UHGV virus genome: UHGV-0099904
Reading direction: 5' to 3' (one strand)
Length of the DNA: 14,417 nucleotides
Source: a virus
This document shows, piece by piece, positions 15 to 14,090 of this stretch. Numbering within the stretch: position 1 is the stretch's first letter; every line of letters begins with the position of its first letter. The notes under the pieces were generated by a model. That model worked only from the letters and a program-made list of their open reading frames with translations. It was not told the DNA's origin and searched no databases. Made by a program: the position numbers and the translations under genes.

Positions 15-3000
15 ATGAACCTGTTAATCACCTCAGTGGATGGTGATAAAACCGCTGGCGCGGCGTCAGTGAATATTGGTGAATTCTACCAGGTAACTAT
101 TCAGCAGCGTAAGGATATTTCTCTTGCACTTAGCGCAGGTAAGAAATATGCAATTGTGCTGAAGGGAAGATACCTCCTTGGAGAAGATTCTTATCAGGTT
201 AATACCGCGTCACATATTCATGCGGCTGAATTTGTTGCCAGAACCTATACCGATTCATATCAGTTAGGAGATGGGGAACTGCTTGTTTGTACGGTGAATA
301 TCCCTGCTGGCGTATCTGCTATTACTAAGGAAATGATAGATGTATCCGACCGCATCGATCTCGCGATAGGCATTGAAATTTCCGACTCTGTAACCAGTAC
401 CAGAAGTGATGTCGCTGCAAGTTCGCTGGCGGTTAAAAAAGCCTACGATCTGGCTAAAAGCAAGTATACGGCGCAGGATGCAAGCACAACACAAAAGGGA
501 TTAGTTCAGCTCAGTAGCGCAACTAACAGCGACAGCGAAACAATGGCGGCTACCCCTAAAGCCGTTAAGTCTGTAAAAGAGCTGGCTGATACCAAAGCGC
601 CAATAGAAAGCCCGAGTCTGACAGGAACGCCAACCGCGCCGACGGCAGCGCAAGGTACAAACAGCACGCAGATCGCAAATACAGCCTTTGTTAAGGCAGC
701 TATAACGGCACTTATCAACGGTGCACCTGGCACACTGGATACGCTTAAAGAAATAGCGGCTGCGATCAATAACGACCCGAATTTCAGCACAACTATCAAC
801 AATGCTCTGGCTCTTAAAGCTCCTTTAGCAAGTCCTGCATTAACGGGAATACCTACTGCGCCTACCGCTGTACAGGGTACGAATAACACGCAGATTGCTA
901 CGACCGCTTATGTAAGAGCTGCTATCTCTGCATTGGTCGGCTCATCACCTGAAGCTCTTGATACCCTGAATGAGCTTGCAGCAGCACTGGGCAATGACCC
1001 GAACTTTGCGACAACAATGACAAATGCGCTGGCAGGCAAACAGCCACTTGATGCAACTTTAACCGCGCTTGCTGGTCTTGCGACAGGCGCAAATAAATTG
1101 CCGTACTTTACCGGTACAGACACTGTTTCTCAGACTGACTTAACGTCAGTCGGTCGCGATATTCTGGCCAAAACAAGCGTTCTTGCTGTTATCCAATACC
1201 TTGGTTTAAGAGAACTCGGTACCAGTGGTGAAAAGATCCCCCTGTTGAGCACGGCTAACACATGGAGTGCGCGCCAGACTTTCAACGGAGGGATCACCGG
1301 GGCGCTGACAGGGAACGCCGACACCGCGACGAAATTGAAAACAGCACGCACGATTGGCGGTGTGGCATTTGATGGCTCGGGCAATATCAATCTTCCAGGT
1401 GTAAATATAACAGGTAACCAGAACACCACGGGGAATGCTGCTACCGCGACAAAACTTGCGACGGTAAGAAACATCAACGGTGTTAAGTTTGATGGTTCTG
1501 CGGACATTTCGATACCAACAATTACGTCCAGAGGGCGTGTTACTGCGCTCACCGGTACAACACAAGGTGCTGCTACTGGATTGCAGATGTATGAGGCGTA
1601 CAACAATAGCTACCCGACCACGTATGGCAACGTATTGCACATGAAAGGTGCGAGTGCTGCTGGTGAGGGCGAGTTGCTTATTGGCTGGAGTAGTACGAGC
1701 GGTGCACATGCGCCGGTTTTCATTCGCTCCCGAAGAGATCACACTGATGCGGCATGGTCAGCGTGGGCGCAGGTATATACATCAAGGGACTCCATTCCTG
1801 GTGTGAATGCCACTGGCAATCAGAATACAACTGGCAATGCAGCAACCGCTACAAAACTACAGACGGCAAGAACTATCGGCGGAGTTAGCTTTGATGGTAC
1901 TGCGAATATTAATTTACCTGGTGTTAACGTTGCGGGTAATCAGAATACATCCGGTAACGCGGCTACAGCGACCAAGTTACAAACCGCGAGAACTATAAAT
2001 GGGGTGTCGTTTGACGGTTCTAAAAACATTGAGCTAACTCCAAGGTCTATAGGCACGATCAACTCTACAACCATGTCTTTTATTGGTGGTGCAGGATGGT
2101 TCAAGCTGGCAACTGTAACCATGCCACAGGCCAGTTCCGTGGTTTACATAAGTCTGATTGGTAGTTCTGGATATAATGTTAACTCCCCTATGCAGGCTGG
2201 TATATCTGAACTTGTTCTTCGTGCGGGAAATGGGAATCCAAAAGGTCTTACTGGTGCGTTATGGCGACGGACATCGGTTGGATTTACTAATTTTGCATGG
2301 GTGAATACATCCGGTGATACCTATGATGTTTATGTTGAAATAGGTAATTACGCCACTGGTGTAAATATCCAGTGGGATTATACCAGTAACGCCAGCGTAA
2401 CGATTCATACATCACCAAATTACACAGTAGATAAACCAACTGGTCTTACTGATGGAACGGTATATGTCATTTACAGTTCGCACATTAAACCGACCGCCAC
2501 GGATGTCGGCGCATTACCAATAACCGGAGGAAATCTCAACGGCGGTTTAACGGCTACTGGTGAGATCGTTTCAAGATATGCAAATGGTTTCCGCATTGCC
2601 TATGGAAGCTACGGATTCTTTATCCGAAACGATGGTTCAAACACATATTTCATGTTGACCAATTCGGGTAACAGCCTGGGAACCTATAATAATTTAAGGC
2701 CGCTTATCATTAACAATGCCAATGGTACTGTTACGATCGGTAATGGGCTCAATGTTACTGGCGGCATCAATGGTAGTTTGAACGGCAATGCTTCAACGGC
2801 TACGAAGTTGCAAACTGCTAGAAAAATAAGCGGCGTGTCTTTTGATGGTTCTGCTGATATAACACTAACAGCTGAAAATGTATCTGCTTTTGCTCTACGC
2901 GCTACTGGAACTTATGCCGATACTAGTGGTGCGGTCCCGTGGAATGCCGAATCAGGTGCGTATAATGTTACACGCTCCGGGGATTCTTATATCGTTGCAA

Positions 3001-4034
3001 ATTTTTATACAGGCGTAGGTAGTTGTCGGACTCTCCAAATCCGAGCGCACCATAAAAATGGTGGATTGTATTACCGTTCATCACGTGATGGCTATGGGTT
3101 CGAAGAGGGCTGGGCTCAGATATATACTAAAAAAGACAGCATCCCTGGTGTGAATACAACTGGTAATCAGAACACTACTGGCAATGCTGCAACTGCAACA
3201 AAACTGCAAACAGCACGCACAATAGGCGGAGTGTCATTCGATGGTAGTGCCAATATCGACCTGCCGGGCGTGAATAAAGCAGGTAATCAGAGCACTACCG
3301 GTAATGCCGCAACCGCAACGAAACTACAGACTGCACGCACTATCAACGGTGTTCAGTTTGATGGTTCTGCAAATATTACTTTAACTGCTGCTAACCTTGG
3401 CCTGAGCGATTCAAGCGGATATGTTGGGCGTTTGGTGAATACCCGGGTTTTCACTTCATCAGGTACGTATACCCCAACCCCAGGAACAAAACGGATCAGG
3501 GTCACAATAACGGGCGGCGGTGGCGGAGGGGGCGGCTGCAAGGCTATATCCAATAATGAAACGTTTTTCGGTGCTGGCGGCGGGGCAGGTGGGACAGTAA
3601 TCACCACGCTGATCCTGACGAAGGATAGTTATCCTGTCACTATCGGCGCAGGTGGGGCCGGCGGCGTTAGTGCGACGACCGGCCTCAAGGGCGGTGATAG
3701 CTCGTTCGGATCGGTAATAGCCCCTGGTGGTGAAGGTGGCGGGAAAGTGGGAGTTACAAACACAAACGGCGGTAACGGCGGTGTGCCAAGTACTGGCGGT
3801 ATCAACATCATTGGTGGACATGGAGGCGACGGTCAGTCCGGAAATATCGGCGTCAGCGGTGAAGGCGGAACATCGTACTGGGGGGGCGGTGGACGCGCAG
3901 GCGCTGGCGGTGGTGTTAGTGGTAAGGCATATGGTTCAGGTGGCGGTGGCGCATACGATGCCGGTTATAGCGGAACCAGTATGACGGGCGGGAAAGGTGC
4001 TGCTGGGATTTGTATTATCGAGGAGTTTGCATAA
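15..4034 (+). CDS. Phage tail fiber protein, 1339 aa; the frame has no upstream stop before the window edge, so the true N-terminus may lie upstream
   Basis: Single 4 kb ORF. Translation shows hallmark tail fiber motifs: KGLVQLSSATNSDSETMAATPKAVK near aa 160-185, PTAPTA..GTN.TQIA.TA(F/Y)V shaft repeats, repeated GNQNTTGNAATATKLQTARTIGGVSFDGSANI units, and a Gly-rich C-terminus. A tail fiber assembly gene follows with a TAATG stop/start overlap. Confidence 0.9.
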   Translation: MNLLITSVDGDKTAGAASVNIGEFYQVTIQQRKDISLALSAGKKYAIVLKGRYLLGEDSYQVNTASHIHAAEFVARTYTDSYQLGDGELLVCTVNIPAGVSAITKEMIDVSDRIDLAIGIEISDSVTSTRSDVAASSLAVKKAYDLAKSKYTAQDASTTQKGLVQLSSATNSDSETMAATPKAVKSVKELADTKAPIESPSLTGTPTAPTAAQGTNSTQIANTAFVKAAITALINGAPGTLDTLKEIAAAINNDPNFSTTINNALALKAPLASPALTGIPTAPTAVQGTNNTQIATTAYVRAAISALVGSSPEALDTLNELAAALGNDPNFATTMTNALAGKQPLDATLTALAGLATGANKLPYFTGTDTVSQTDLTSVGRDILAKTSVLAVIQYLGLRELGTSGEKIPLLSTANTWSARQTFNGGITGALTGNADTATKLKTARTIGGVAFDGSGNINLPGVNITGNQNTTGNAATATKLATVRNINGVKFDGSADISIPTITSRGRVTALTGTTQGAATGLQMYEAYNNSYPTTYGNVLHMKGASAAGEGELLIGWSSTSGAHAPVFIRSRRDHTDAAWSAWAQVYTSRDSIPGVNATGNQNTTGNAATATKLQTARTIGGVSFDGTANINLPGVNVAGNQNTSGNAATATKLQTARTINGVSFDGSKNIELTPRSIGTINSTTMSFIGGAGWFKLATVTMPQASSVVYISLIGSSGYNVNSPMQAGISELVLRAGNGNPKGLTGALWRRTSVGFTNFAWVNTSGDTYDVYVEIGNYATGVNIQWDYTSNASVTIHTSPNYTVDKPTGLTDGTVYVIYSSHIKPTATDVGALPITGGNLNGGLTATGEIVSRYANGFRIAYGSYGFFIRNDGSNTYFMLTNSGNSLGTYNNLRPLIINNANGTVTIGNGLNVTGGINGSLNGNASTATKLQTARKISGVSFDGSADITLTAENVSAFALRATGTYADTSGAVPWNAESGAYNVTRSGDSYIVANFYTGVGSCRTLQIRAHHKNGGLYYRSSRDGYGFEEGWAQIYTKKDSIPGVNTTGNQNTTGNAATATKLQTARTIGGVSFDGSANIDLPGVNKAGNQSTTGNAATATKLQTARTINGVQFDGSANITLTAANLGLSDSSGYVGRLVNTRVFTSSGTYTPTPGTKRIRVTITGGGGGGGGCKAISNNETFFGAGGGAGGTVITTLILTKDSYPVTIGAGGAGGVSATTGLKGGDSSFGSVIAPGGEGGGKVGVTNTNGGNGGVPSTGGINIIGGHGGDGQSGNIGVSGEGGTSYWGGGGRAGAGGGVSGKAYGSGGGGAYDAGYSGTSMTGGKGAAGICIIEEFA
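597..1040 (+). repeat. Tandem duplication of a ~74-aa shaft module inside the tail fiber gene (aa 195-268 and 269-342)
   Basis: APIESPSLTGTPTAPTAAQGTNSTQIANTAFVKAAITALINGAPGTLDTLKEIAAAINNDPNFSTTINNALALK versus APLASPALTGIPTAPTAVQGTNNTQIATTAYVRAAISALVGSSPEALDTLNELAAALGNDPNFATTMTNALAGK. The protein copies are clearly related while the DNA differs at many codon third positions. Confidence 0.8.
1299..1514 (+). repeat. First pair of ~40-aa TATKL fiber repeats (aa 429-500)
   Basis: TGNADTATKLKTARTIGGVAFDGSGNINLPGVN followed by ITGNQNTTGNAATATKLATVRNINGVKFDGSADISIP. Confidence 0.8.
1791..2036 (+). repeat. Second pair of TATKL fiber repeats (aa 593-674)
   Basis: IPGVNATGNQNTTGNAATATKLQTARTIGGVSFDGTANINLPGVNVAGNQNTSGNAATATKLQTARTINGVSFDGSKNIEL. 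Confidence 0.8.
3141..3383 (+). repeat. Third pair of TATKL fiber repeats (aa 1043-1123); a single copy also lies at about 2769-2867
   Basis: IPGVNTTGNQNTTGNAATATKLQTARTIGGVSFDGSANIDLPGVNKAGNQSTTGNAATATKLQTARTINGVQFDGSANITL. Near-identical in protein to the 1791-2036 copy, with many synonymous DNA differences. Confidence 0.8.
3492..4031 (+). repeat. Glycine-rich C-terminal tip domain of the tail fiber (aa ~1160-1339); GGN-rich low-complexity DNA
   Basis: Runs GGGGGGGG, GAGGGAGG, GAGGAGG, PGGEGGG, GGNGG, GGHGGDG, GEGG, GGGGRAGAGGG and GSGGGG alternate with short non-Gly segments. Includes a G7 homopolymer at 3880-3886. Confidence 0.75.
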
Positions 4035-4444
4035 TGAATGCGTCATATGCAGTTATTGAAAATGGGATGGTTGTGAATGTCATTGTCTGGGATGGCGAGG
4101 CTGAATTCACAGTGCCGGATAATCAGCAGCTCATTAATATTTCTGATATCAGTGAGCAGCCCGGAATCGGCTGGGTGTATTCAGACGGGGGATTTACTGC
4201 ACCACCCACTCCGGAACGTTCTCATGATGAACTGGTAGCTGACGCTGAACAGAAAAAACAGTCGCTGATTGATACCGCAATGGCTTCCATTAGTCTTATT
4301 CAACTGAAATTACAGGCCGGGCGGAATCTTACGCAGGCTGAAACCACCCGTCTTAACGCTGTGCTGGATTATATCGATGCGGTGACCGCAATGGATACCA
4401 GCACTGCACCAGATGTCAATTGGCCAGCGTTCCCGGAGGCGTAG
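4034..4444 (+). CDS. tfa: Tail fiber assembly protein (lambda Tfa / P1 U-like chaperone)
   Basis: C-terminal DTSTAPDVNWPAFPEA closely matches the lambda Tfa C-terminus as I recall it (DTSTAPDIEWPAVP). AGGAG at 4021-4025 sits 8 nt before the ATG at 4034, which overlaps the fiber TAA. The ORF-track start at 4010 is a TTG and is less likely. Confidence 0.9.
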   Translation: MNASYAVIENGMVVNVIVWDGEAEFTVPDNQQLINISDISEQPGIGWVYSDGGFTAPPTPERSHDELVADAEQKKQSLIDTAMASISLIQLKLQAGRNLTQAETTRLNAVLDYIDAVTAMDTSTAPDVNWPAFPEA

Positions 4445-4588
4445 TCCATTTAATAAAATATCTGGATCGCTGGAAGCATCGACTGGTTCCAGTGCGTCCG
4501 GATAATCGAGCTACAAGTTATCAGATGATTACCGTTCATGCCTCAAGAGTGAGCGCATGCTGCACCCACGCAAATTTAACTTTCATAC

Positions 4589-4642
4589 GACCAGAGTTTA
4601 CCTATCAAAAGCCTTTTTCACTCTGGTCGTTCAGCCTTTTTT
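4589..4642 (+). terminator. Candidate terminator or operator: 9-bp perfect inverted repeat GACCAGAGT/ACTCTGGTC with a 22-nt spacer, followed by a T6 run
   Basis: Arms at 4589-4597 and 4620-4628; TTTTTT at 4637-4642. It lies about 145 nt after the tfa stop. The loop is long for a classical intrinsic terminator. Confidence 0.3.
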
Positions 4643-4724
4643 CCACTCGCCTTGTCCTCAAAAATTAGCTCACATCCTGCGCTTTCAAGAGCGTTTCGTT
4701 GTAAAGCAGTGTTTTGTTCATTTG

Positions 4725-4752
4725 TTGATACGCGTACATAGCCTATTAGCAT
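4725..4752 (+). promoter_or_regulatory. Weak sigma70-like promoter candidate (TTGATA, 16-nt spacer, TAGCAT) in the AT-rich spacer upstream of the lyd/dar block
   Basis: Hexamers read directly from sequence in a 435-bp noncoding AT-rich region that precedes a long co-directional operon. A phage late-activator-dependent promoter is equally possible and I cannot place it by eye. Confidence 0.2.
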
Positions 4753-4879
4753 ATTTTCTGCTCACTATCGTTATTTATAGCAAGCTGCGGATTTTAATTA
4801 ACAAAAACCAGTATGTGTGGAAATCACAAAGTACATACCGTTTCCCAATGATATTTAATTCACTATTAAGGAAATAGTT

Positions 4880-5161
4880 ATGTGTGATTTCACAATAATG
4901 CTCCTCTCCATCCTTGGCGGGGTGCATTCGTTTCTGAATGGGGTTCGTGAAAAACGTTACGAAGCGTCATGCAGGCAATTGATGGCCGAGTGTATTGCTG
5001 CCGTACTTGCAGGCTTTATAGGCATGTATTTCGCGGAATATAAGGGTATGGATGAAAGTCTTCAGAATTGCGTGACTATTATTTGCAGCATCAATAACAG
5101 GCTCATTCTTGAAAAGTTACAAAGGATTATCGATTCGTACCTCAATAGAAATGCCTCTTAA
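4880..5161 (+). CDS. Small two-TM membrane protein, holin-like; paralog of the downstream LydA-like gene
   Basis: AAGGA at about 4868-4872 sits 8 nt before the ATG. Hydrophobic segments at aa 5-20 and 33-51. Aligns with the 5229-5558 product (LLSILGGVHSFLNGVRE versus LLSVIGGIGTFLMDVRD, with shared AV.AG, I.S.N and S.LN positions). Confidence 0.55.
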   Translation: MCDFTIMLLSILGGVHSFLNGVREKRYEASCRQLMAECIAAVLAGFIGMYFAEYKGMDESLQNCVTIICSINNRLILEKLQRIIDSYLNRNAS

Positions 5162-5202
5162 GCAACAAATGACCGGTTGAGAAGTTACTTTGCATACCAT
5201 TA

Positions 5203-5228: not shown

Positions 5229-5558
5229 GTGCTTGACACACAGGAATTAGCTCCAGTTGCTATTGCGCTCCTGCTTTCAGTAATTGGTGGGATAGGCACG
5301 TTCCTGATGGATGTCCGAGACGGTCGCCAGTCTGGCAATTTGTTGGGATTGGTTACGGAGATCTTTGTTGCAGTGACAGCTGGCGCGGTGGCGTACCTAT
5401 TGGGGCAACACGAGGGCTGGGAGTTATCAATTACGTACTTAATGGTAACGATAGCCAGCAATAACGGTCATGAGGTGATTTCAGGGATGAAACGAGTGAA
5501 TATCGATAGCATTCTGAATGTTCTTACAAGTTTGGTGAAAAAGGGAGGCGGGAAATGA
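5229..5558 (+). CDS. lydA: Holin (P1 LydA-like), 109 aa, GTG start
   Basis: Two to three hydrophobic helices (APVAIALLLSVIGGIGTFLM, LLGLVTEIFVAVTAGAVAYLLG) and a charged C-terminal tail (KKGGGK). It sits immediately upstream of the dar-like block, as lydA does in P1. Its stop overlaps the next start (ATGA). Confidence 0.55.
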   Translation: MLDTQELAPVAIALLLSVIGGIGTFLMDVRDGRQSGNLLGLVTEIFVAVTAGAVAYLLGQHEGWELSITYLMVTIASNNGHEVISGMKRVNIDSILNVLTSLVKKGGGK

Positions 5559-5998
5559 TTGGCTGGGGTGTATGCGTTCTTGCGTTAGCCTTAGCCGATC
5601 GCTATTTGCTAAAACGCAAGGACATCACGCATTTAGAACTTGGTGATGTGGAAATTAAACCGGGTTTCATCCGGGTGCCGTTCAAGTACCGGTCTAAATT
5701 CCCGTTTTTGCGCGGCGCAACGGTCAGATATTGGATCCGCGATGTTCAGAAGCCGACGACAGTGATTGAAGGTGAACAACGTTGTCTGACGTCGGCTGAA
5801 CAGGGCGAAAACAGTGAATGGTTGTACATACCCACTGAATATATGGGTAAAGGAGAGCGACTGTGGCATTTCAACGTCATGGTTACGCATGGCGACTCGT
5901 TCATTAACCCGTTGTATCGGATTTTCCCTGTTACTCAGCAAATCCGCAGAAGTTACGTAATAAATCTCGCACAGGATGTGTCAGATGACGAAAAATAA
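5555..5998 (+). CDS. lydB: Signal-anchored protein, 147 aa; candidate holin antagonist (P1 LydB-like)
   Basis: AGGGAGG precedes the ATG. N-terminal hydrophobic segment MIGWGVCVLALALA. Position between the holin and the hdf/darA block matches P1 gene order as I recall it. Function is inferred from synteny only. Confidence 0.45.
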   Translation: MIGWGVCVLALALADRYLLKRKDITHLELGDVEIKPGFIRVPFKYRSKFPFLRGATVRYWIRDVQKPTTVIEGEQRCLTSAEQGENSEWLYIPTEYMGKGERLWHFNVMVTHGDSFINPLYRIFPVTQQIRRSYVINLAQDVSDDEK

Positions 5999-6587
5999 GT
6001 ATGCAACGGTCGATTTTGACCAGGTTAATGAAAAGGGGCTGAAATCCCTTATCGCGGCGATCAATAAAACCGGTGTTACGGTAATTGAGGTTGACTCCAG
6101 CAACCGCGCAACAACGAAAGATGGCGTTAAAGTTAAAACCGCAAAGCTGGTTCTTAACGACGGACAAATTCTTGCCATACAGGTAAACGATACTGGCGAT
6201 ATATCGTCTGTGAAACTGAATGGAAAAGCTATTCCTAACGCTCAGTCGCCGGATATCAAGACGCTTGGTACCGTCATGGGACAGGCGGCCCGCAAAAACT
6301 CCGCAAAATTCCAGAAATCACTGATCGCCAAAGCGAAGCGTGTTGCCAATCCGGTAGACAAGAAACCGGCAGTTAAATCCAACTTTCAGCGCCTGCAAGA
6401 AGCAAAACAGCGGAATGCTCAGGTGGTTGCCGCTTATAAGTCCGCGCAGAATTCGGTGTCTTTCAATCAACAGCAGATCACTGATTTGCGGGCGAAGCTG
6501 GATAAGGAGACGGGCCGACTCAATAACGAAAAGGCACGGAATGGCGAACTCAAACGTCGTCTTAAGCAACTGAAAGCAGGAAATTAA
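5976..6587 (+). CDS. hdf: Hdf-like virion/head-morphogenesis protein, homologous to the middle of the downstream DarA-like protein; the start may be the second ATG at 5985
   Basis: Shares LNDGQILAIQ / LSDGQTISIL and ...KNSAKFQ... segments with the 6589-8508 product, followed by a K/R/Q-rich predicted coiled coil. The stop is 1 nt before the next ATG. Confidence 0.55.
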   Translation: MCQMTKNKYATVDFDQVNEKGLKSLIAAINKTGVTVIEVDSSNRATTKDGVKVKTAKLVLNDGQILAIQVNDTGDISSVKLNGKAIPNAQSPDIKTLGTVMGQAARKNSAKFQKSLIAKAKRVANPVDKKPAVKSNFQRLQEAKQRNAQVVAAYKSAQNSVSFNQQQITDLRAKLDKETGRLNNEKARNGELKRRLKQLKAGN

Positions 6588-6588
6588 C

Positions 6589-8508
6589 ATGGAACAGTTA
6601 AATATCAATAAAGGGGTGACGATCAAGCCTGGGCTTGACGTGCTTCCCCCGCCAGTGACTGATGATGAATATCGCGCATTAATGGCCGGTGAGGACCGCT
6701 ATCTGATGACGGAATCCAACACCCTGGAGGAAATCGAGGCTACGTTCTTCTATGACACGCCGATCCACTGGTGTGCTACGGATTTACTGGAGGCGATTAG
6801 TTCTACTCGTTTGCAGTTACACCGGACCATGCAGGCATTTGTCCGGGCATTGAACCAGAAGCTGAATGGTACCGGAATCTCTGCGGGGAGTGATAAAACG
6901 GGGGAGGTGGCCCAGAGCGGCGCGCGCGCGATCGGCGGTGCTGAAATTGGCCGGGCACGTAACGTTAACGGGCTGCCGGTCCTGCCAGCCATTATTCCGC
7001 TCAGTGATGGTCAGACTATCAGCATTCTGTTTCATAGCCCGACAGCGGAAAACCGGATCACCAATAGCGATACGCTGGTTGCTTTCCAGTTCTTACTGAA
7101 TAAAAAAGACGTTACTCACACCGTTGCTCCGATGAGTGGACGTGATATGACGCTGGCGCAGGTCACCATGAAACTTGCCAACCTTGCAGAGAAAAACTCG
7201 GCAAAATTCCAGCGTGCGCAGAAGAAGAAAAAAGCCCTGGTTGATGAAATAACCCAACTACAGGCTGACAGTGACCAGAAAGAGGATGCCATGAGCGACC
7301 TCGCGGATCAGGTGGCAGCGGTAGAAGGGCAGAAGGTAGATCTGGAGCAGAAAATTAACGCTGTTGCATCGGAAGCGGATTCTCTTTATGAAGAGAATGA
7401 GCGTTTGCAGACGGAGATTGATCAGCTCAATCGCACAGGTGGGCGCGATACCATTGATCCAGCGGGGATGACTGGTGGGCACTCGCGCGCGCTGACGGAT
7501 CGCCTTGCCAGTATCAAAAATCGTATGCATATGAACGGGGAAGTGACGCTCAGTAATGGAGCATCAATGAAGCAATTCATTGAGGACGGCGAAGGGTATA
7601 TCCAGTTAACCGATTCGGATGGCAGCGTGTACATGATCAAGGCTAAATCCATACAGGGTGTGGACATGGCAGATGCGATCGGCAAGCTGTTTAAAGCCTA
7701 TAAAGCGGGTAATGTATCGGAATATCTGGTCCAACCAGAAGAACATAAACCGGAAAACGTCGAACCTGAACCAGCGGAGGATACCGGTAGCTCTTCGCCT
7801 GAACCAGAAGTCTCTGTAGGTGCATATCGATATGCCTTGCAAATGCGTCCGGCGGCCCCTGGCGCAATACCTGAAGGTAACAAAGCAATTCTGCCGCGCC
7901 CTGATGAAGGTGACCCGTATTATGAATATGCACGCTACGGCATTGCTACTTACGATACCCCGCTTTCTGATCAGCAAATGAGTGAGTACGACCTGAAGTT
8001 ATTGCCTCGCGAGGATTCTTTCGACTTCCTGGCGAAGACACTTACTAATGGTCCGTTTGGCAAATATGCACAAAAAGCTCTGGATCTGGCCACCAGCTCA
8101 CCAGACGAGTTCCGCGTAATGCTGAAAACTCAGTTTCAAAAAACTTTCCCCAATATTGCGTTTCCGGGGGGCGCTGGCACCGAGAAAATGGTGCAGAGCA
8201 TGATCAATGCATTGCAGGCCGAAGTCGGTGAGATTACTCAGCCAGAACCTGCCCCGGCACAGCCTGATGAAACGGTTAGCGAAGCAGATGCAGAGGCTAA
8301 TAAAGCCATTGAATATCTCAATAACGTGATGGATATGCAAAGCACTGACATGGCGGAGATCCGTAACGCCCGGGGTAATGTCCGGGAAGCGATTGCAGCC
8401 CTTCAGGCTGCCGGGCGTTTTGAGGAAAACGAAGAGCTGGTTAATGGCGCTGCTCGCCACCTGGCTGATCTGCTGGTAGCAATCCAGAAAGCGGGGGTAG
8501 CGGCATGA
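6589..8508 (+). CDS. darA: DarA-like antirestriction and capsid morphogenesis virion protein, 639 aa
   Basis: AGGAAA RBS. Large protein with a central coiled coil (QLQADSDQKEDAMSDLADQVAAVEGQKVDLEQKINAV...) and acidic Pro/Glu-rich linkers. Size and position (hdf, 639-aa protein, 121-aa protein, 995-aa protein) match my recollection of the P1 darA operon. ATGA overlap with the next gene. Confidence 0.6.
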   Translation: MEQLNINKGVTIKPGLDVLPPPVTDDEYRALMAGEDRYLMTESNTLEEIEATFFYDTPIHWCATDLLEAISSTRLQLHRTMQAFVRALNQKLNGTGISAGSDKTGEVAQSGARAIGGAEIGRARNVNGLPVLPAIIPLSDGQTISILFHSPTAENRITNSDTLVAFQFLLNKKDVTHTVAPMSGRDMTLAQVTMKLANLAEKNSAKFQRAQKKKKALVDEITQLQADSDQKEDAMSDLADQVAAVEGQKVDLEQKINAVASEADSLYEENERLQTEIDQLNRTGGRDTIDPAGMTGGHSRALTDRLASIKNRMHMNGEVTLSNGASMKQFIEDGEGYIQLTDSDGSVYMIKAKSIQGVDMADAIGKLFKAYKAGNVSEYLVQPEEHKPENVEPEPAEDTGSSSPEPEVSVGAYRYALQMRPAAPGAIPEGNKAILPRPDEGDPYYEYARYGIATYDTPLSDQQMSEYDLKLLPREDSFDFLAKTLTNGPFGKYAQKALDLATSSPDEFRVMLKTQFQKTFPNIAFPGGAGTEKMVQSMINALQAEVGEITQPEPAPAQPDETVSEADAEANKAIEYLNNVMDMQSTDMAEIRNARGNVREAIAALQAAGRFEENEELVNGAARHLADLLVAIQKAGVAA

Positions 8509-8870
8509 CACTATCAGCTATTGAGTTAATGGATCTCAGCGATAAGTTGGATGCTCTGATGTCCAAAGCGGCTACCGCGAGTGGCATGGAGTTGCTGGAT
8601 ATCAGCGATGAAATTGACCAGATCATGCAACAGATGGGGTACGGTGTGTCCGGCGGCAGTAGTGGCGAGGAAAAACAACCTGCGGTACATGATGGTGTGC
8701 CAAAACTGGTTGCTGATTTCCTGGCTGATAAATTCGTCGATCAGAGCACCGATGCATTTATCGGTACCTTGCAGGATTTGAGTCAATATGTTGGCACATA
8801 CATCGACCTGGACCAGGTTAAACAGCACACGGCGGCATGGATAGCCGCCAACATTAAAGAGGCAGCATAA
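8505..8870 (+). CDS. ddrA: DdrA-like small acidic protein, 121 aa
   Basis: Translationally coupled to the upstream gene (ATGA). Acidic, predicted helical. Named by position in the dar-like operon only. Confidence 0.5.
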   Translation: MTLSAIELMDLSDKLDALMSKAATASGMELLDISDEIDQIMQQMGYGVSGGSSGEEKQPAVHDGVPKLVADFLADKFVDQSTDAFIGTLQDLSQYVGTYIDLDQVKQHTAAWIAANIKEAA

Positions 8871-8882
8871 GGCGTAACAGGG

Positions 8883-11870
8883 ATGAGCTTAAGCGATCAG
8901 GTGGTGATGGCCACCAGCATAGAAACGCTGATCGAGCTGCTAAAAAACCTGCCCGATTACGGGCGGGTTTCGTATGTGGTGACAGCGAAGGGAGACGAGG
9001 TAAAAACAGCGTTTGATATCGTCGATGCCTCAGCTCTTTTGGTATCCAATACTCTGGACGGGAAAATTAATCCAGACTATCCCCAGGAACTTCAGCCGCG
9101 CGACCGGACCCGCGCATCCAGCCTTCTTCAGGTCAACCAGATATCCAAGGATTTGCGTCCTGCCCAGCTTACCGATTCCGGTTTATCCAGCCATGGCGCG
9201 CCAATAATTGGTGAGGACAATGCCGTTGAGTCAGGTAATGGGCGGACCATGGGGATCATCAAAGCCTATCAGGACGGTAATGCGGATCGGTATCGGGAGT
9301 ACCTGATTGAACATGCGACCGAATTCGGCATACGGCCTGAAAAGGTTGAATCAATGACGGCTCCGGTACTGGTGCGCCGCCGGTTAACGAAGGTTGACCG
9401 TGTTCAGTTTGCCAAGGACTCAAATATTTCTGATCTCCAGGAAATGGCAGCCAGTGAAAAGGCTTTTGTTGATGCCGACAGCATAACACCGGCGATGATG
9501 GCGTTGTTTAACCCGTCAGAAAGCGGAGATCTGCTTAGCCGCAGTAATGACGCGTTTATTCGCGGATTCATGACGCAAGTTGGTGCCACACAGGCTGCTG
9601 GCCTTGTAACGGAAGATGGGCGACCAACACGGCAACTTGTAGACCGTATACAAAACGCGATCTTTGCCAAGGCATATAAGGATGCGCGCCTGGTAAGGAT
9701 GGTTGCAGAAGAACCTGATCCGGATATGCGTAATGTTCTGACGGCGCTTAATGCGGCAGCCAATGATTTTGTCCAGATGCAGGCTTTATCAGGAGAAGCG
9801 CACAAGCAGGCTGTGACAACTATTGTTGATGGCATTGAGACAGCGGATAGCCTCGATAAAAAGGCGCTGGCGGCATTGAAAGATGCGGTAGACCTGGTAA
9901 GGCAATCGAAGGAGTCAGGCCAGCATATTACCGATGTTATTGCTCAGGGGGATATGTTCAGCGAAACGGCCCCGGAAGTGAAAGCACTCGCGTTGTTCAT
10001 CGTCGCGAATAACCGTAGCGCGAAGCGTATGGCCACCGCCTTTAAGTTGATGGCTCAACGTATCAATGATGAGTTACAGCACCAGGGCCAGGCGCTGGGG
10101 GATATGTTTGGCGGCGGCGATGTGTCGTTACAGGATATCCTTCGCCAGGTGTCTCAGGAACTGGAATACGAAGGCATGCAAGGGATATCCGGCGGTCTTT
10201 TCGAGTCCGTTTCCGGCGGTAGTTACAACGGTGTTGCTCCGTATACCAGTTTGCTATTACATCGGGCATCCGGCATCAAAGACATTATTCATCTGATCAG
10301 GCTGCTTTCCCGCACAGATCACCAGGATGAACAGCTTGTACAAGTGCTTGCGCATTTTGTTCGAATGCCTGTTGCCGAAGTGAAAAAATGGTGCCGATTA
10401 TTCGGTATCAGCAATTCGTTACTTCGCGGCTTGTTAAATCACGCATCCTCCCTTGGGCGCGATGGCTTTGACGAGATAGCGCAGGCGATAAAAAACGGAG
10501 ATATGCCACCAGCTATTGACTGGTTTTCCATTCGCCCAACCAGGGTGAAAGCATTCCTTAGCGCGGCGCATTCGGCATCACCATTGGCAGAAATGGTTCA
10601 GAGGTTGTCGCTCATATTCACAGACCATACCGCGTTGGGTGATCTGACTCTGGACGAGATGAAAGAAGCCTCCATTCAGTGGGCCGATCAACAAAATGAG
10701 GTTAACTCAGACTTCTTGCCAGCATTCAGGAAGGCCGTTAGTAAAGCGGATGATGCCCGTGGAATTCTGAAGGCATTTAAGGCATTGCAAAGTCGGGTTA
10801 ATAAACATGTCGGTGATATCGATGGGGTAACGGCGGAAGGCAGGGATATCCTTAAAGAGCACGGCATAACGCCAGAGTTTATTGATGAGATCAGGACGGA
10901 TATGCAGCGTGAGGTCGTATCGTCCCTGCAAATTGTAGCCAGAGCGTTGGCGGATGCTAATCCGAAGAGTGCGGCCATTGTTAACCGGGTTATTGGTGAT
11001 ATTGAAGCATCGGAGGGCATGGGGGCGCTGAAACTCTTCCTTTCGCGAGCGTTTAATCCTAACGGCAATATTCTCCCTGGCATTATTGGTGAGGCTAAAA
11101 AGTATGTCAGTGAAGAAGAACTTGAGCAGCTTGACCAACTACTTAAGCGATTCTCATATAACCCGCAGACACGCTGGCAAATGAATCAGCGAGGTATGGG
11201 TTCGGTCCACGAGAAAGTGTTATCTGCCATGAACAGTGCGATCGCAAACTCATCCGTATCTGAAGAAAAAGCTCTTGAGTGGGCCGACTCTTTTATCACG
11301 GAAGAAGTGGAAGAAGCCCGCGCTGGACAGAATGGTGGGATAGACCTGCGCAAGGAACTTGCTGATATTTATCGCCTGACCGGCGGGAAAATATCGACCT
11401 TATCAAAGGTGGTTCACCACCAGGGAAGGGCATATGCAAATCTTAATGGTGTTGTTGCTGTCAATTTGAACGATGAAAATGCAAGTGCACTGTGGCACGA
11501 GCTGGGTCATCATCTTGAGTACAGTAACCCTGGTTTGTTAGAGAAAGCCCGGTCATTCCTGAAGGCCAATGTTGAAGGGGATAAGCCATCTTTCGTTAAT
11601 ATCGGTGGGCGTGGCAAGCCTGAATGGTGCTTCAGATCTCGATTGAGTAATATTTATATGGCGAAGGTATACCCGCCAGCCTCAGTAAGTAACACCGGGA
11701 AAATTCGGCAGAAATCCCCGACTATTTCCAAAACGTCAGCAACGGAAGTATTCTCTATGGCTCTTCAGTTGTATCATGACAAAGAGGCCGCTGCCGCATC
11801 ACTGATGAATGGTGACGGATTGCTGGAACTGTTATTAGGTGTGGCAAAGGAGCTAAATAATGCAGATTAA
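8883..11870 (+). CDS. ddrB: DdrB-like large virion protein, 995 aa, with a zincin HExxH motif and a possible ParB-like N-terminal domain
   Basis: Uninterrupted 3 kb ORF. HELGH at nt 11496-11510 (WHELGHHLE, aa 872-876). N-terminal segment VESGNGRTMGIIKAY resembles the ParB/Srx G-x-x-R signature. Operon position and length fit P1 DdrB as I recall it. Confidence 0.65.
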   Translation: MSLSDQVVMATSIETLIELLKNLPDYGRVSYVVTAKGDEVKTAFDIVDASALLVSNTLDGKINPDYPQELQPRDRTRASSLLQVNQISKDLRPAQLTDSGLSSHGAPIIGEDNAVESGNGRTMGIIKAYQDGNADRYREYLIEHATEFGIRPEKVESMTAPVLVRRRLTKVDRVQFAKDSNISDLQEMAASEKAFVDADSITPAMMALFNPSESGDLLSRSNDAFIRGFMTQVGATQAAGLVTEDGRPTRQLVDRIQNAIFAKAYKDARLVRMVAEEPDPDMRNVLTALNAAANDFVQMQALSGEAHKQAVTTIVDGIETADSLDKKALAALKDAVDLVRQSKESGQHITDVIAQGDMFSETAPEVKALALFIVANNRSAKRMATAFKLMAQRINDELQHQGQALGDMFGGGDVSLQDILRQVSQELEYEGMQGISGGLFESVSGGSYNGVAPYTSLLLHRASGIKDIIHLIRLLSRTDHQDEQLVQVLAHFVRMPVAEVKKWCRLFGISNSLLRGLLNHASSLGRDGFDEIAQAIKNGDMPPAIDWFSIRPTRVKAFLSAAHSASPLAEMVQRLSLIFTDHTALGDLTLDEMKEASIQWADQQNEVNSDFLPAFRKAVSKADDARGILKAFKALQSRVNKHVGDIDGVTAEGRDILKEHGITPEFIDEIRTDMQREVVSSLQIVARALADANPKSAAIVNRVIGDIEASEGMGALKLFLSRAFNPNGNILPGIIGEAKKYVSEEELEQLDQLLKRFSYNPQTRWQMNQRGMGSVHEKVLSAMNSAIANSSVSEEKALEWADSFITEEVEEARAGQNGGIDLRKELADIYRLTGGKISTLSKVVHHQGRAYANLNGVVAVNLNDENASALWHELGHHLEYSNPGLLEKARSFLKANVEGDKPSFVNIGGRGKPEWCFRSRLSNIYMAKVYPPASVSNTGKIRQKSPTISKTSATEVFSMALQLYHDKEAAAASLMNGDGLLELLLGVAKELNNAD

Positions 11871-12177
11871 AATCGCAGCGCCATTAGGCGGAGATGCCAT
11901 TATCGAATTTGATGATAATGAAGAAGTTTCCGGGCGTTTAAGCATTATCTCCGGTGACATTACCGAGGACATGATCGCTGAAGCCATAGCTGGGGCAAAT
12001 CCCAATAGCTATATGGGATTCGTTAACACCCTTGATGCTCTCGCAAGTGATGTTCTCCGAACGCTGCATCTTTACGCTGGCTGGTTTGTTGATTGGCCAG
12101 CAGTAGAGGGTGGCGATGAGGACGACGACGATGACGACGATGATTTTGGGGATCATGTAGACCAGATCGTATATTGA
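11860..12177 (+). CDS. Small, strongly acidic protein, 105 aa, ending in an Asp8 run; candidate DNA-mimic or virion protein
   Basis: Strong AAGGAG RBS 8 nt upstream of the ATG; the start overlaps the ddrB-like stop by 11 nt. About 28 D/E versus about 3 K/R residues. A terminator hairpin follows. Confidence 0.6.
   Translation: MQIKIAAPLGGDAIIEFDDNEEVSGRLSIISGDITEDMIAEAIAGANPNSYMGFVNTLDALASDVLRTLHLYAGWFVDWPAVEGGDEDDDDDDDDFGDHVDQIVY
12121..12144 (+). repeat. (GAY)8 trinucleotide repeat encoding Asp8, inside the acidic run DEDDDDDDDD (12115-12144)
   Basis: gac gac gac gat gac gac gat gat read directly in frame. Confidence 0.9.
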
Positions 12178-12208: not shown

Positions 12209-13303
12209 TCACGAGAAGCTTTTTTCTGATGTCAGCCAACAGTGCTCGTGCAAATCTCTTGGTGGTTTTTCGACAAATGCCTCTTCAGCCACATCCTGCC
12301 AGGGGATTTGTTTAGCCCATTCAGCTATAGCGTTATGGTTTGCCGAGAATAACGGTATTGTATAGGCCTTCAGCCAGTCTAATGTGCTGGAGTTGTGTTT
12401 TTGAGCGTGATGTTTCGCATGGTGTTTGGCGATCACGATCGTAGGCACTACCCATTTACTACCGTCAGTCATTGTGAAGTGCATATTACGGGGAACAGAT
12501 GACTTTTCCATCAACTCCCGAATCCCGGGAAATTTCCCCAAGATCAATCGGCGATATTCATCGCTATTGCGCCCACCAAACTCTTTGGCTTTGAATTCAA
12601 GATATGCTTCAGAAACGAGAGGTGAATCCTCTGTGTTTAGAGTTAGCGCCGTGAAAAAACCAGCAGGATTGTTTTTACTATGGGCCAACCGGTGATGCGA
12701 ATCATAAAAGTACCCTTTCTCGCGTTCCGATGGTTTCGACAGCAACAGCAGGCGCGAGTCATAATTGGTTAAATTGCCAGTTATCACTGCATGAGCGCGA
12801 TCGCTGATTTCCGCCGAGTTAATAACGATGAAAAGATCGTGCGGTCCAGTAAAACCAGCCAGAGACTCTTCGTTATTCAGACAATAGGTTATATAGACGC
12901 ATCCCCATGTTTCACTGATATGCACCAACCCTTTGTCAGGGTGTATTCTGAAATAATTGCCAAGAAAAGGGTGTTTTTGGGTAACTCGCTCCCAATAACG
13001 GAACATATAGTCAATTATTGTTTTTCGACTATCGTTAATCGCAGGAGAAACAACCACTGTACGGGAACACGAATACAGTATTGTTTGCAGGATGCTAATC
13101 ACTGCCACAATAGAGGTTTCCCCAATACCATGTGGTGTGGTGGCAGTGACTTTGGCTCCGGTGTTCTTTATCGCGTTAATAATTTTTGCTTGATGAGGTG
13201 TTAACTCAATATCAAGCAACTCTTTTGCTGCCAGTTCCCAATTGTCTTTATACCGTTCTATCAGTGCTAACCAGGCAGATTCATTCTGTATACGATTAAT
13301 CAC
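12209..13303 (-). CDS. Terminase-large-subunit-like ATPase-fold protein with degenerate Walker A and B motifs, 364 aa
   Basis: LTPHQAKIINAIKNTGAKVTATTPHGIGETSIVAVISIL...RTVVVSPAINDSRKTI...DLFIVINSAEIS parallels the T4 gp17-type N-terminal ATPase (YQ..., RQLGKTTVVA..., IYIDECAF) as I recall it, but with GETS in place of GKT and NSAE in place of DE. Overlaps the upstream gene by 8 nt. Confidence 0.55.
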   Translation of the reverse strand: MINRIQNESAWLALIERYKDNWELAAKELLDIELTPHQAKIINAIKNTGAKVTATTPHGIGETSIVAVISILQTILYSCSRTVVVSPAINDSRKTIIDYMFRYWERVTQKHPFLGNYFRIHPDKGLVHISETWGCVYITYCLNNEESLAGFTGPHDLFIVINSAEISDRAHAVITGNLTNYDSRLLLLSKPSEREKGYFYDSHHRLAHSKNNPAGFFTALTLNTEDSPLVSEAYLEFKAKEFGGRNSDEYRRLILGKFPGIRELMEKSSVPRNMHFTMTDGSKWVVPTIVIAKHHAKHHAQKHNSSTLDWLKAYTIPLFSANHNAIAEWAKQIPWQDVAEEAFVEKPPRDLHEHCWLTSEKSFS

Positions 13304-14090
13304 TTTCCACCTCTTCCGTGGTGTTTTCTTGCAGTTCTGTTAATGCAGCACGACATAGGTTCCGGGCATTGGCTATAGCCACACTTTTGACTTCATCCGT
13401 CATCGTGCAGGTAATGTACTGATCGAGTTCTTCAGCGCGGATGATGCTTTTGCCAATCAGAAACTGTATTTGCCAGAGCAGATCGGCATCCATAATCAGA
13501 ATTTCTGCCGGGCCTTCAGGACCAGCCGGGAAGGAAACATAAGACTGTTTGCCCAGGCCGATAACTCGACAACTTGCTTCAAGAATTGCGCGATTGAGGT
13601 CTGACTTTGTAACTGAAACAGGTTGATTTTCACCTGCGATTACGCCGTTGACATGGATGTGGAATGGCATGTAGCTTGAAATTCGCTCTACTTTCCATAC
13701 GCCAGCAAGCGATCCTTCATGCAGCACAATGGGGGTAACCGCGAGTTTCATCTCACCATATAACTGCTGGCAGATAGCTGGATTGCTGAATACATCCAAA
13801 GGTTCACACTCAAACAGCGGCGCAATCTGTATGAGGTCCATCATGGTCATACCAGGGGTACGAGCAGTAATGAATCTGCGCATGCCAGTATCCATTGTGC
13901 GCCAGATAGCTACACCATGCTTTTTGCTCACTTCTTCAGTAAAGCCAAGGTGGCACATGATGGTTTTTTCGATAGCCAGATCAGAGATAGAAACCTTTTC
14001 GCCAGGTACACCATCATTATTGATGGTCACTTCTACACTCTGGCCATTACGCAGGCGGTATTGAATGGTTTTAGTATTTTGTGCTGTCAT
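13296..14090 (-). CDS. Hypothetical protein, 264 aa, co-transcribed with the terminase-like gene
   Basis: Long ORF with a plausible weak RBS (GAGAAAAGA) before the ATG. Ends inside the start of the next gene. I see no recognisable motifs. Confidence 0.55.
   Translation of the reverse strand: MTAQNTKTIQYRLRNGQSVEVTINNDGVPGEKVSISDLAIEKTIMCHLGFTEEVSKKHGVAIWRTMDTGMRRFITARTPGMTMMDLIQIAPLFECEPLDVFSNPAICQQLYGEMKLAVTPIVLHEGSLAGVWKVERISSYMPFHIHVNGVIAGENQPVSVTKSDLNRAILEASCRVIGLGKQSYVSFPAGPEGPAEILIMDADLLWQIQFLIGKSIIRAEELDQYITCTMTDEVKSVAIANARNLCRAALTELQENTTEEVESD

Follow-up and report, generated by a model that had tools for sequence, protein, structure and literature searches.

DdrB of a P1-like punavirus joins a DdrB-type ParB-like domain to a C-terminal zincin-like metallopeptidase domain

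Introduction

DdrB belongs to the classic Dar anti-restriction system of phage P1, where its RefSeq record reads 'unknown protein function; possible metallopeptidase', and its orthologue in phage JL22 is annotated as a 'putative metallopeptidase'. Here we analyse the ddrB gene of UHGV virus genome UHGV-0099904, the whole stretch of 14,417 nucleotides being referred to below as the window, and compare its product with P1 DdrB and with related phage proteins.

The DdrB-like ParB domain was named after P1 DdrB by Iyer, Burroughs, Anand, de Souza and Aravind (2017, J Bacteriol 199:e00245-17; PMC5512222), who also identified the C-terminal zincin metallopeptidase (MPTase) of the P1 protein. Citing earlier work, these authors stated that DdrB is processed to ~76 kDa before packaging, predicted that it undergoes autoproteolysis in which the N-terminal ParB fragment is kept, and discussed parallels with ArdC, TraC1 and the N4 virion RNA polymerase (PMC5512222). 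The combination of a ParB-like domain and a zincin in the packaged, polyvalent DdrB is thus already published: the P1 genome annotation has carried it since 2004, and Iyer et al. described it in 2017. Proteomics of P1 virions identified 39 unique DdrB peptides at 59.5% coverage (PMC9024508). DdrB is packaged after DdrA, in a manner that requires DarA and Hdf (PMC12810830); the protein is non-essential (PMC10695390); and Dar protection operates in cis only, on the packaged DNA (PMC12707154).

Our literature search found no later biochemical study of DdrB and no published zinc-binding or peptide-hydrolysis assay. An initial annotation of the window, made from the sequence alone, had called the biochemical role of DdrB-type proteins undefined. 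In the 2017 work of Piya et al., deletion of ddrB is said to lower sensitivity to EcoB/EcoK, and loss of the gene reportedly alters DarB-dependent restriction phenotypes. What the present analysis adds is incremental: the nearest solved folds of the peptidase domain, a fuller list of its invariant residues, two candidates for its third zinc ligand (E955 and E914), and the observation that Pfam holds no model either for this widespread domain or for the module at aa 186-480.

Identity and layout of the gene

The ATG-started open reading frame (ORF) of 995 aa lies at 8883-11870 (+), exactly the coordinates of the initial annotation, whose label 'DdrB-like' was also apt. By megablast, the ORF shares 98.0-98.9% DNA identity over its full length with ddrB of the punaviruses (P1, P7, SJ46, RCS47, JL22, phi456 and others), the value for P1 being 98.5%. 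The gene is ddrB, the orthologue of phage P1 ddrB (P1_gp022, YP_006491.1). The encoded length of 995 aa is the same in the window and in the P1/punavirus orthologues, and phrog_2299 covers DdrB end to end. Compared with P1 DdrB, 14 of the 995 residues are substituted (F26Y, D143E, P151R, N429Y, P480H, H481Q, D499E, S567P, D595E, T613P, V715A, S771G, Y791S and V812A), and the conserved motifs are untouched. The gene order hdf-darA-ddrA-ddrB-hxr and an identical late promoter LPdar are likewise common to the window and its P1/punavirus counterparts; the window is the late darA operon of a P1-like punavirus.

The layout of DdrB, with positions in the window, is as follows.

8988-9383 (+), aa 36-167: DdrB-type ParB-like domain (Pfam PF18763)
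9225-9245 (+), aa 115-121: VESGNGR loop with the G-x-x-R signature; R121 is the putative pocket arginine
9438-10322 (+), aa 186-480: conserved middle module, with a conservation peak to ~aa 445
10323-11192 (+), aa 481-770: variable linker
11193-11867 (+), aa 771-995: zincin-like metallopeptidase domain
11427-11429 (+), R849: arginine upstream of the active-site helix
11496-11510 (+), aa 872-876: HELGH; H872 and H876 are putative zinc ligands and E873 the putative general base
11517-11519 (+), E879: acidic residue 3 positions past HExxH
11622-11624 (+), E914: alternative candidate third zinc ligand
11655-11672 (+), Y925 to Y930: consensus PYVGKxY, with two invariant tyrosines
11745-11747 (+), E955: motif TEVxSMG at a helix start; preferred candidate third zinc ligand

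Conservation of the C-terminal peptidase motif

HELGH, in the context WHELGHHLE, occupies aa 872-876, precisely where the initial annotation had placed it as a zinc-metallopeptidase motif, and it is the sole HExxH in DdrB. The number of HExxH motifs expected by chance in a protein of this composition is 0.029; a lone occurrence is therefore suggestive and not decisive, and the real evidence comes from conservation. When the C-terminal region was used in a word-indexed homologue search, all that came back were near-identical fragments and two partial sequences at ~50% identity. Relatives of the peptidase domain were collected by an exhaustive search of 1.84 billion representative proteins (50%-identity clusters), which yielded 376 representative clusters at E <= 1e-3.

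H872, E873 and H876 are invariant in all 145 homologues with less than 60% identity, and they are equally invariant in two alignments, A1 (30 sequences) and A3 (68 sequences). E879 is kept in 144 of the same 145 homologues and fits the trait that Iyer et al. (PMC5512222) gave for the phage-type clade, an acidic residue three residues past HEXXH. In the wider set, R849 is kept in 128/143 sequences and E914 in 124/131, the former being invariant in both A1 and A3 and the latter in A3; E955 is invariant in A1 and A3, and Y925 and Y930 are conserved or invariant among diverged relatives. By analogy with lethal factor and the Pro-Pro endopeptidases, the two tyrosines are candidate catalytic or oxyanion residues.

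We considered a chance motif and a degenerate, inactive zincin, and both are effectively ruled out by the invariance of the catalytic residues. A non-catalytic role of the HExxH domain, in structure or packaging, is also very improbable, as is a chance origin of its motif. A non-catalytic role has a precedent in the N4 virion RNA polymerase, whose MPTase-containing region is not processed, yet is needed for encapsidation (Iyer et al. 2017, PMC5512222); a single HExxH is no proof by itself, and no model in Pfam, NCBIfam or PADLOC matched aa 701-995. However, inactive derivatives normally lose their catalytic residues, whereas in DdrB the H, E and H persist throughout the diverged homologues together with five further conserved polar or aromatic residues, and the modelled fold matches that of zincins. 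With H872, E873 and H876 on the active-site helix and R849, E879, E914, Y925, Y930 and E955 conserved or invariant, the peptidase domain looks catalytically competent, as judged from conservation and from the model described below.

Predicted fold of the peptidase domain

A single-sequence AlphaFold model of aa 701-995 was unusable (predicted local distance difference test score, pLDDT, 38). With a 30-sequence alignment, aa 771-995 were modelled with a pLDDT of 91.6 and a predicted template modelling score (pTM) of 0.90, and the model displays a predicted zincin fold, in which a mixed beta-sheet lies against the active-site helix and a downstream helix. HELGH corresponds to model residues 102-106, inside helix 94-111, and E955 directly precedes model helix 186-192. 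On sequence and model together, E955 is the preferred candidate for the third zinc ligand, with E914 as the alternative. The initial annotation had set beforehand the two points on which its metallopeptidase claim should fall, the lack of a zincin fold around HELGH and the lack of conservation of the motif; the modelled fold and the 145 homologues let the claim survive both.

In the model comparisons, the closest folds are those of the Pro-Pro endopeptidases (PPEPs), anthrax lethal factor and MtfA, with ArdC distant. Foldseek found no significant match to the model of aa 771-995 in the PDB (best E 1.0, Certhrax), indicating that the domain is a divergent zincin, and a search of BFVD with the same model gave uncharacterised phage proteins only. 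Searches of the PDB sequences by phmmer and hmmsearch, for which the queries were the whole protein, its N-terminal half, the middle module and the alignments of the ParB and peptidase domains, gave no significant relevant match; closest to significance came the BoNT/Wo light chain (E 0.16), with whose HExxH the peptidase-domain profile weakly aligns its own.

The DdrB peptidase resembles family M34 in structure and is not an M34 member. Its sequence identity to M34-type zincins (lethal factor, PPEP-2 and PPEP-3; PDB 6fpc, 9g0j, 6psn and 1yqy) is 13-15%, which does not amount to membership at the sequence level, and the Pfam model ATLF did not match; DdrB differs from these zincins in an additional N-terminal bundle of helices and in 20 residues inserted ahead of E955. 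The domain is a member of the polyvalent-protein MPTase group, for which Iyer et al. used P1 DdrB as one of their examples. It agrees with their description of an HEXXH on one helix, a Glu on a later helix (in DdrB a candidate ligand) and predicted self-processing, and nothing of substance differs. ArdC, the antirestriction protein of R388 and pSa (PDB 6sna), combines an ArdC-N single-stranded-DNA-binding domain with a C-terminal metallopeptidase, an architecture that DdrB does not have. ArdC is an analogue of DdrB and not a close relative, and it was as an analogue that the initial annotation had cited it.

The N-terminal ParB-like domain

The second signature singled out from the sequence was ESGNGRTMGI, which begins at aa 116 and had been likened to the G-x-x-R loop of ParB and sulfiredoxin (Srx). 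Pfam PF18763 (ddrB-ParB, 'ddrB-like ParB superfamily domain') matches aa 36-167 with an E value of 1.9e-39 and 135 bits against a cut-off of 27.6, the match spanning profile positions 2-120 of 121, and the 11 aligned homologues all match PF18763 as well. VESGNGR (aa 115-121) is invariant both in 14 diverged ddrB-ParB copies (48-68% identity) and in alignment A2 of this domain; further stretches that are invariant in the same 14 copies include QPR-R-T (aa 71-76) and P-L-R-R (aa 161-167), among others. Within the invariant loop, G118-N-G-R121 provides the putative G-x-x-R arginine of the ParB/Srx superfamily, a residue type whose role in DdrB-ParB was treated by Iyer et al. 2017 (PMC5512222). 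The strand-G-x-x-R-helix stretch reads AVESGNGRTMGI in DdrB and IVAGERRFRAA in Bacillus subtilis ParB (PDB 6sdk), whereas the module that follows the ddrB-ParB domain differs from the canonical ParB helix-turn-helix.

Direct comparisons with the canonical ParB/Srx N-terminal domain, as in Spo0J/ParB, Noc, KorB and Srx, gave less. None of the 11 family members matched Pfam ParB_N, and an hmmsearch of alignment A2 against the PDB sequences found no ParB/Srx similarity. In hhalign, the ddrB-ParB domain matched three PDB-verified ParB N-domains with a probability below 1% (the B. subtilis ParB sequence used was 100% identical to PDB 6sdk over aa 21-218), a value which, given the very shallow profiles (Neff ~2), is uninformative and not negative evidence. 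The placement of the DdrB N-terminus in the ParB/sulfiredoxin superfamily, and with it the earlier reading of the loop as ParB-like, is based on Pfam and on Iyer et al. 2017 (PMC5512222).

Domain architecture and proposed self-processing

The most conserved part of DdrB is aa ~10-480, and full-length homologues align over ~10-450/480 with E values of 1e-160 to 1e-200. In local phmmer comparisons, the N-terminal alignments of diverged full-length homologues stop at aa 444-481 in all but one, a protein designated P0016 that aligns on to aa 686. The middle module (aa 186-480) is present in all full-length homologues with a mean column identity of 66% (alignment A4), and it is matched by phrog_5143 (a 2204-position profile) and phrog_14693; a significant relative of this module was found neither in Pfam nor among the PDB sequences. 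The order of the two terminal domains, ParB at the N-terminus and peptidase at the C-terminus, is kept in homologues with only 32-44% identity in the peptidase domain.

Because both domains lie in one ORF, this ORF belongs to the LPdar late operon, and published virion proteomics place the protein in the particle, DdrB is a polyvalent phage protein, in which ParB-like and zincin domains share one late-operon, virion-packaged polypeptide. This is the architecture that the initial annotation had proposed. Our analysis establishes what the gene is, where its domains begin and end, which residues are conserved and how the domains are arranged, along with the zincin fold as modelled.

We propose that DdrB is a head-packaged late Dar protein with a competent C-terminal zincin that cuts DdrB itself in the linker, a reading to which we assign a probability of roughly 0.6. 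DdrB would enter the procapsid via the pathway that depends on DarA, Hdf and DdrA, and the zincin domain would then, presumably after binding zinc, cleave DdrB itself in the linker, near aa 700. Self-cleavage would free a ~76-kDa ParB-containing fragment that is retained with the packaged DNA; delivered with this DNA, the fragment may modulate DarB-dependent protection against EcoB/EcoK, possibly through an activity of its ParB-like domain. The position of the cut is suggested by the calculated mass of aa 1-700, 76.5 kDa, which matches the reported ~76-kDa form. For the location in the virion, the order of packaging, the 76-kDa species and the phenotype of the mutant, this scheme draws on the literature.

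The reported processing could also be the work of another enzyme, which is the main alternative to our proposal. It is possible, although we regard it as doubtful, that the P1 prohead protease Pro, which is T4 gp21-like and cuts after Glu, processes DdrB and that the zincin has another substrate or is simply removed. Pro reportedly cleaves the P1 major capsid protein at the E120/S121 bond and removes the DarA N-terminus, and T4 head-internal proteins are processed likewise (discussion in PMC9024508). In DdrB the pattern [LI]-x-E occurs 13 times, with one site, L16-I17-E18, close to the N-terminus and several in aa 570-737; the consensus available for P1 Pro is limited to a glutamate at position P1. 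However, processing by Pro leaves unexplained the invariance of a complete catalytic set across all 145 homologues and the continued fusion of the zincin to the ParB module in diverged homologues.

The structural neighbours raise a different question, namely whether the zincin acts in trans. We consider it unlikely that the domain is an injected effector that cleaves a host protein (for example, part of a restriction or another defence system) or a Dar protein packaged with it (such as DarB or Ulx), with self-cleavage not being its main role. Lethal factor and the Pro-Pro endopeptidases, whose solved structures come closest to that of the domain, are endopeptidases of the toxin or secreted type and work in trans, and the altered DarB-dependent restriction phenotypes that Piya et al. 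reportedly saw in 2017 would suit such an effector. Effector action is also among the possibilities given for such domains by Iyer et al. 2017 (PMC5512222). On the other hand, no substrate is known, the reported pre-packaging processing would take the peptidase out of the virion if the C-terminal part is lost, and the cis-only Dar protection (PMC12707154) is hard to reconcile with a protease that diffuses and inactivates enzymes of the host.

In a bolder scheme, which we hold to be rather improbable, the zincin would be a sequence-specific endopeptidase of the lethal-factor/PPEP kind, which travels in with the DNA and cleaves a specific target of the host or of the Dar system, and the ParB-like module together with its conserved 300-aa partner would form a nucleotide-gated DNA-binding or clamping unit on the injected genome. 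Such a clamping unit, riding on the injected genome, could, if it exists, explain why Dar protection is cis-only.

For a member of so classic an anti-restriction system, a firm domain map is useful for the design of experiments. The map points to H872/E873/H876, to E955 or E914, to Y925/Y930, to R121 in the ParB loop, and to a likely cleavage zone at ~aa 700.

Peptidase and ParB-like domains in other phage proteins

The wider peptidase family consists of ~600-aa proteins, mostly without a Pfam match. Among 68 proteins, the peptidase domain was fused to Phage_Mu_F in six, to InPase in two and to Rho_N in two, with one fusion each to a portal protein, LPD3, ParB_N and ddrB-ParB; these partners fit a domain of proteins that are carried inside phage heads. 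One protein of 1378 aa (P0031) has two ddrB-ParB domains, an InPase (inorganic pyrophosphatase) domain and a DdrB-type C-terminal zincin, which shows that the ParB module can be duplicated and joined to nucleotide-metabolising domains. The ddrB-ParB domain was found in 37 records of isolated phages. In Aeromonas phage phiARM81mr (2732-12304), the ddrB-ParB domain of a 3,190-aa 'putative virion structural protein' is 47% identical to that of the window, and the protein is an example of a giant polyvalent protein.

The surrounding locus

The genes and the promoter around ddrB in the window are as follows.

4880-5161: lydC
5182-5200 (+): late promoter LPdar, an exact 19-nt match to the annotated P1 LPdar
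5229-5558: lydA
5555-5998: lydB
5976-6587 (+): hdf, a Dar-system partner with a DarA_N domain (Pfam PF18788, E 1.1e-21; P1 annotation)
6589-8508 (+): darA, internal head protein (Pfam DarA_N and DarA_C; P1 annotation)
8505-8870 (+): ddrA, directly upstream of ddrB (phrog_1855, 'DdrA-like anti-restriction protein', E 1.2e-57)
8883-11870 (+): ddrB, 995 aa and stop
11860-12177 (+): hxr, Xre-like gene (ORF list, P1 annotation and phrog_2292)

According to the P1 annotation, LPdar drives lydA-lydB-hdf-darA-ddrA-ddrB, and the darA product is required for the packaging of other Dar proteins (PMC12810830). The start codon of hxr overlaps the 3' end of ddrB by 11 nt (11860-11870), which suggests that the Xre-like gene is translationally coupled to the Dar operon. 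Within ddrB, an antisense ORF at 9404-9835 (-) corresponds to P1 iddB ('unknown protein function') and is a putative gene only; the window counterpart runs on past the P1 stop and so has 143 aa, against 132 in P1.

About 70% of the window could be aligned to P1 itself. The tail-fibre region (15-4877) is unlike that of P1 and contains an S-like fibre protein of 1339 aa (Phage_fiber_2, Gp34_trimer and Gly_rich_2), whose gene is followed by that of a 144-aa Caudo_TAP assembly protein, and neither a cin invertase nor an invertible C-segment separates the fibre genes from lydC. Downstream of hxr, two overlapping genes at 12209-14090 (-) stand in place of P1 isaB-IS1-isaA. The first encodes 364 aa (phrog_5902, with a weak match of the terminase-large-subunit type), and the second encodes 264 aa (phrog_2326); searches of Pfam and PADLOC with both gave no match. 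The same 364/264-aa gene pair is carried by MH422554, where the first gene is annotated as 'terminase large subunit'.

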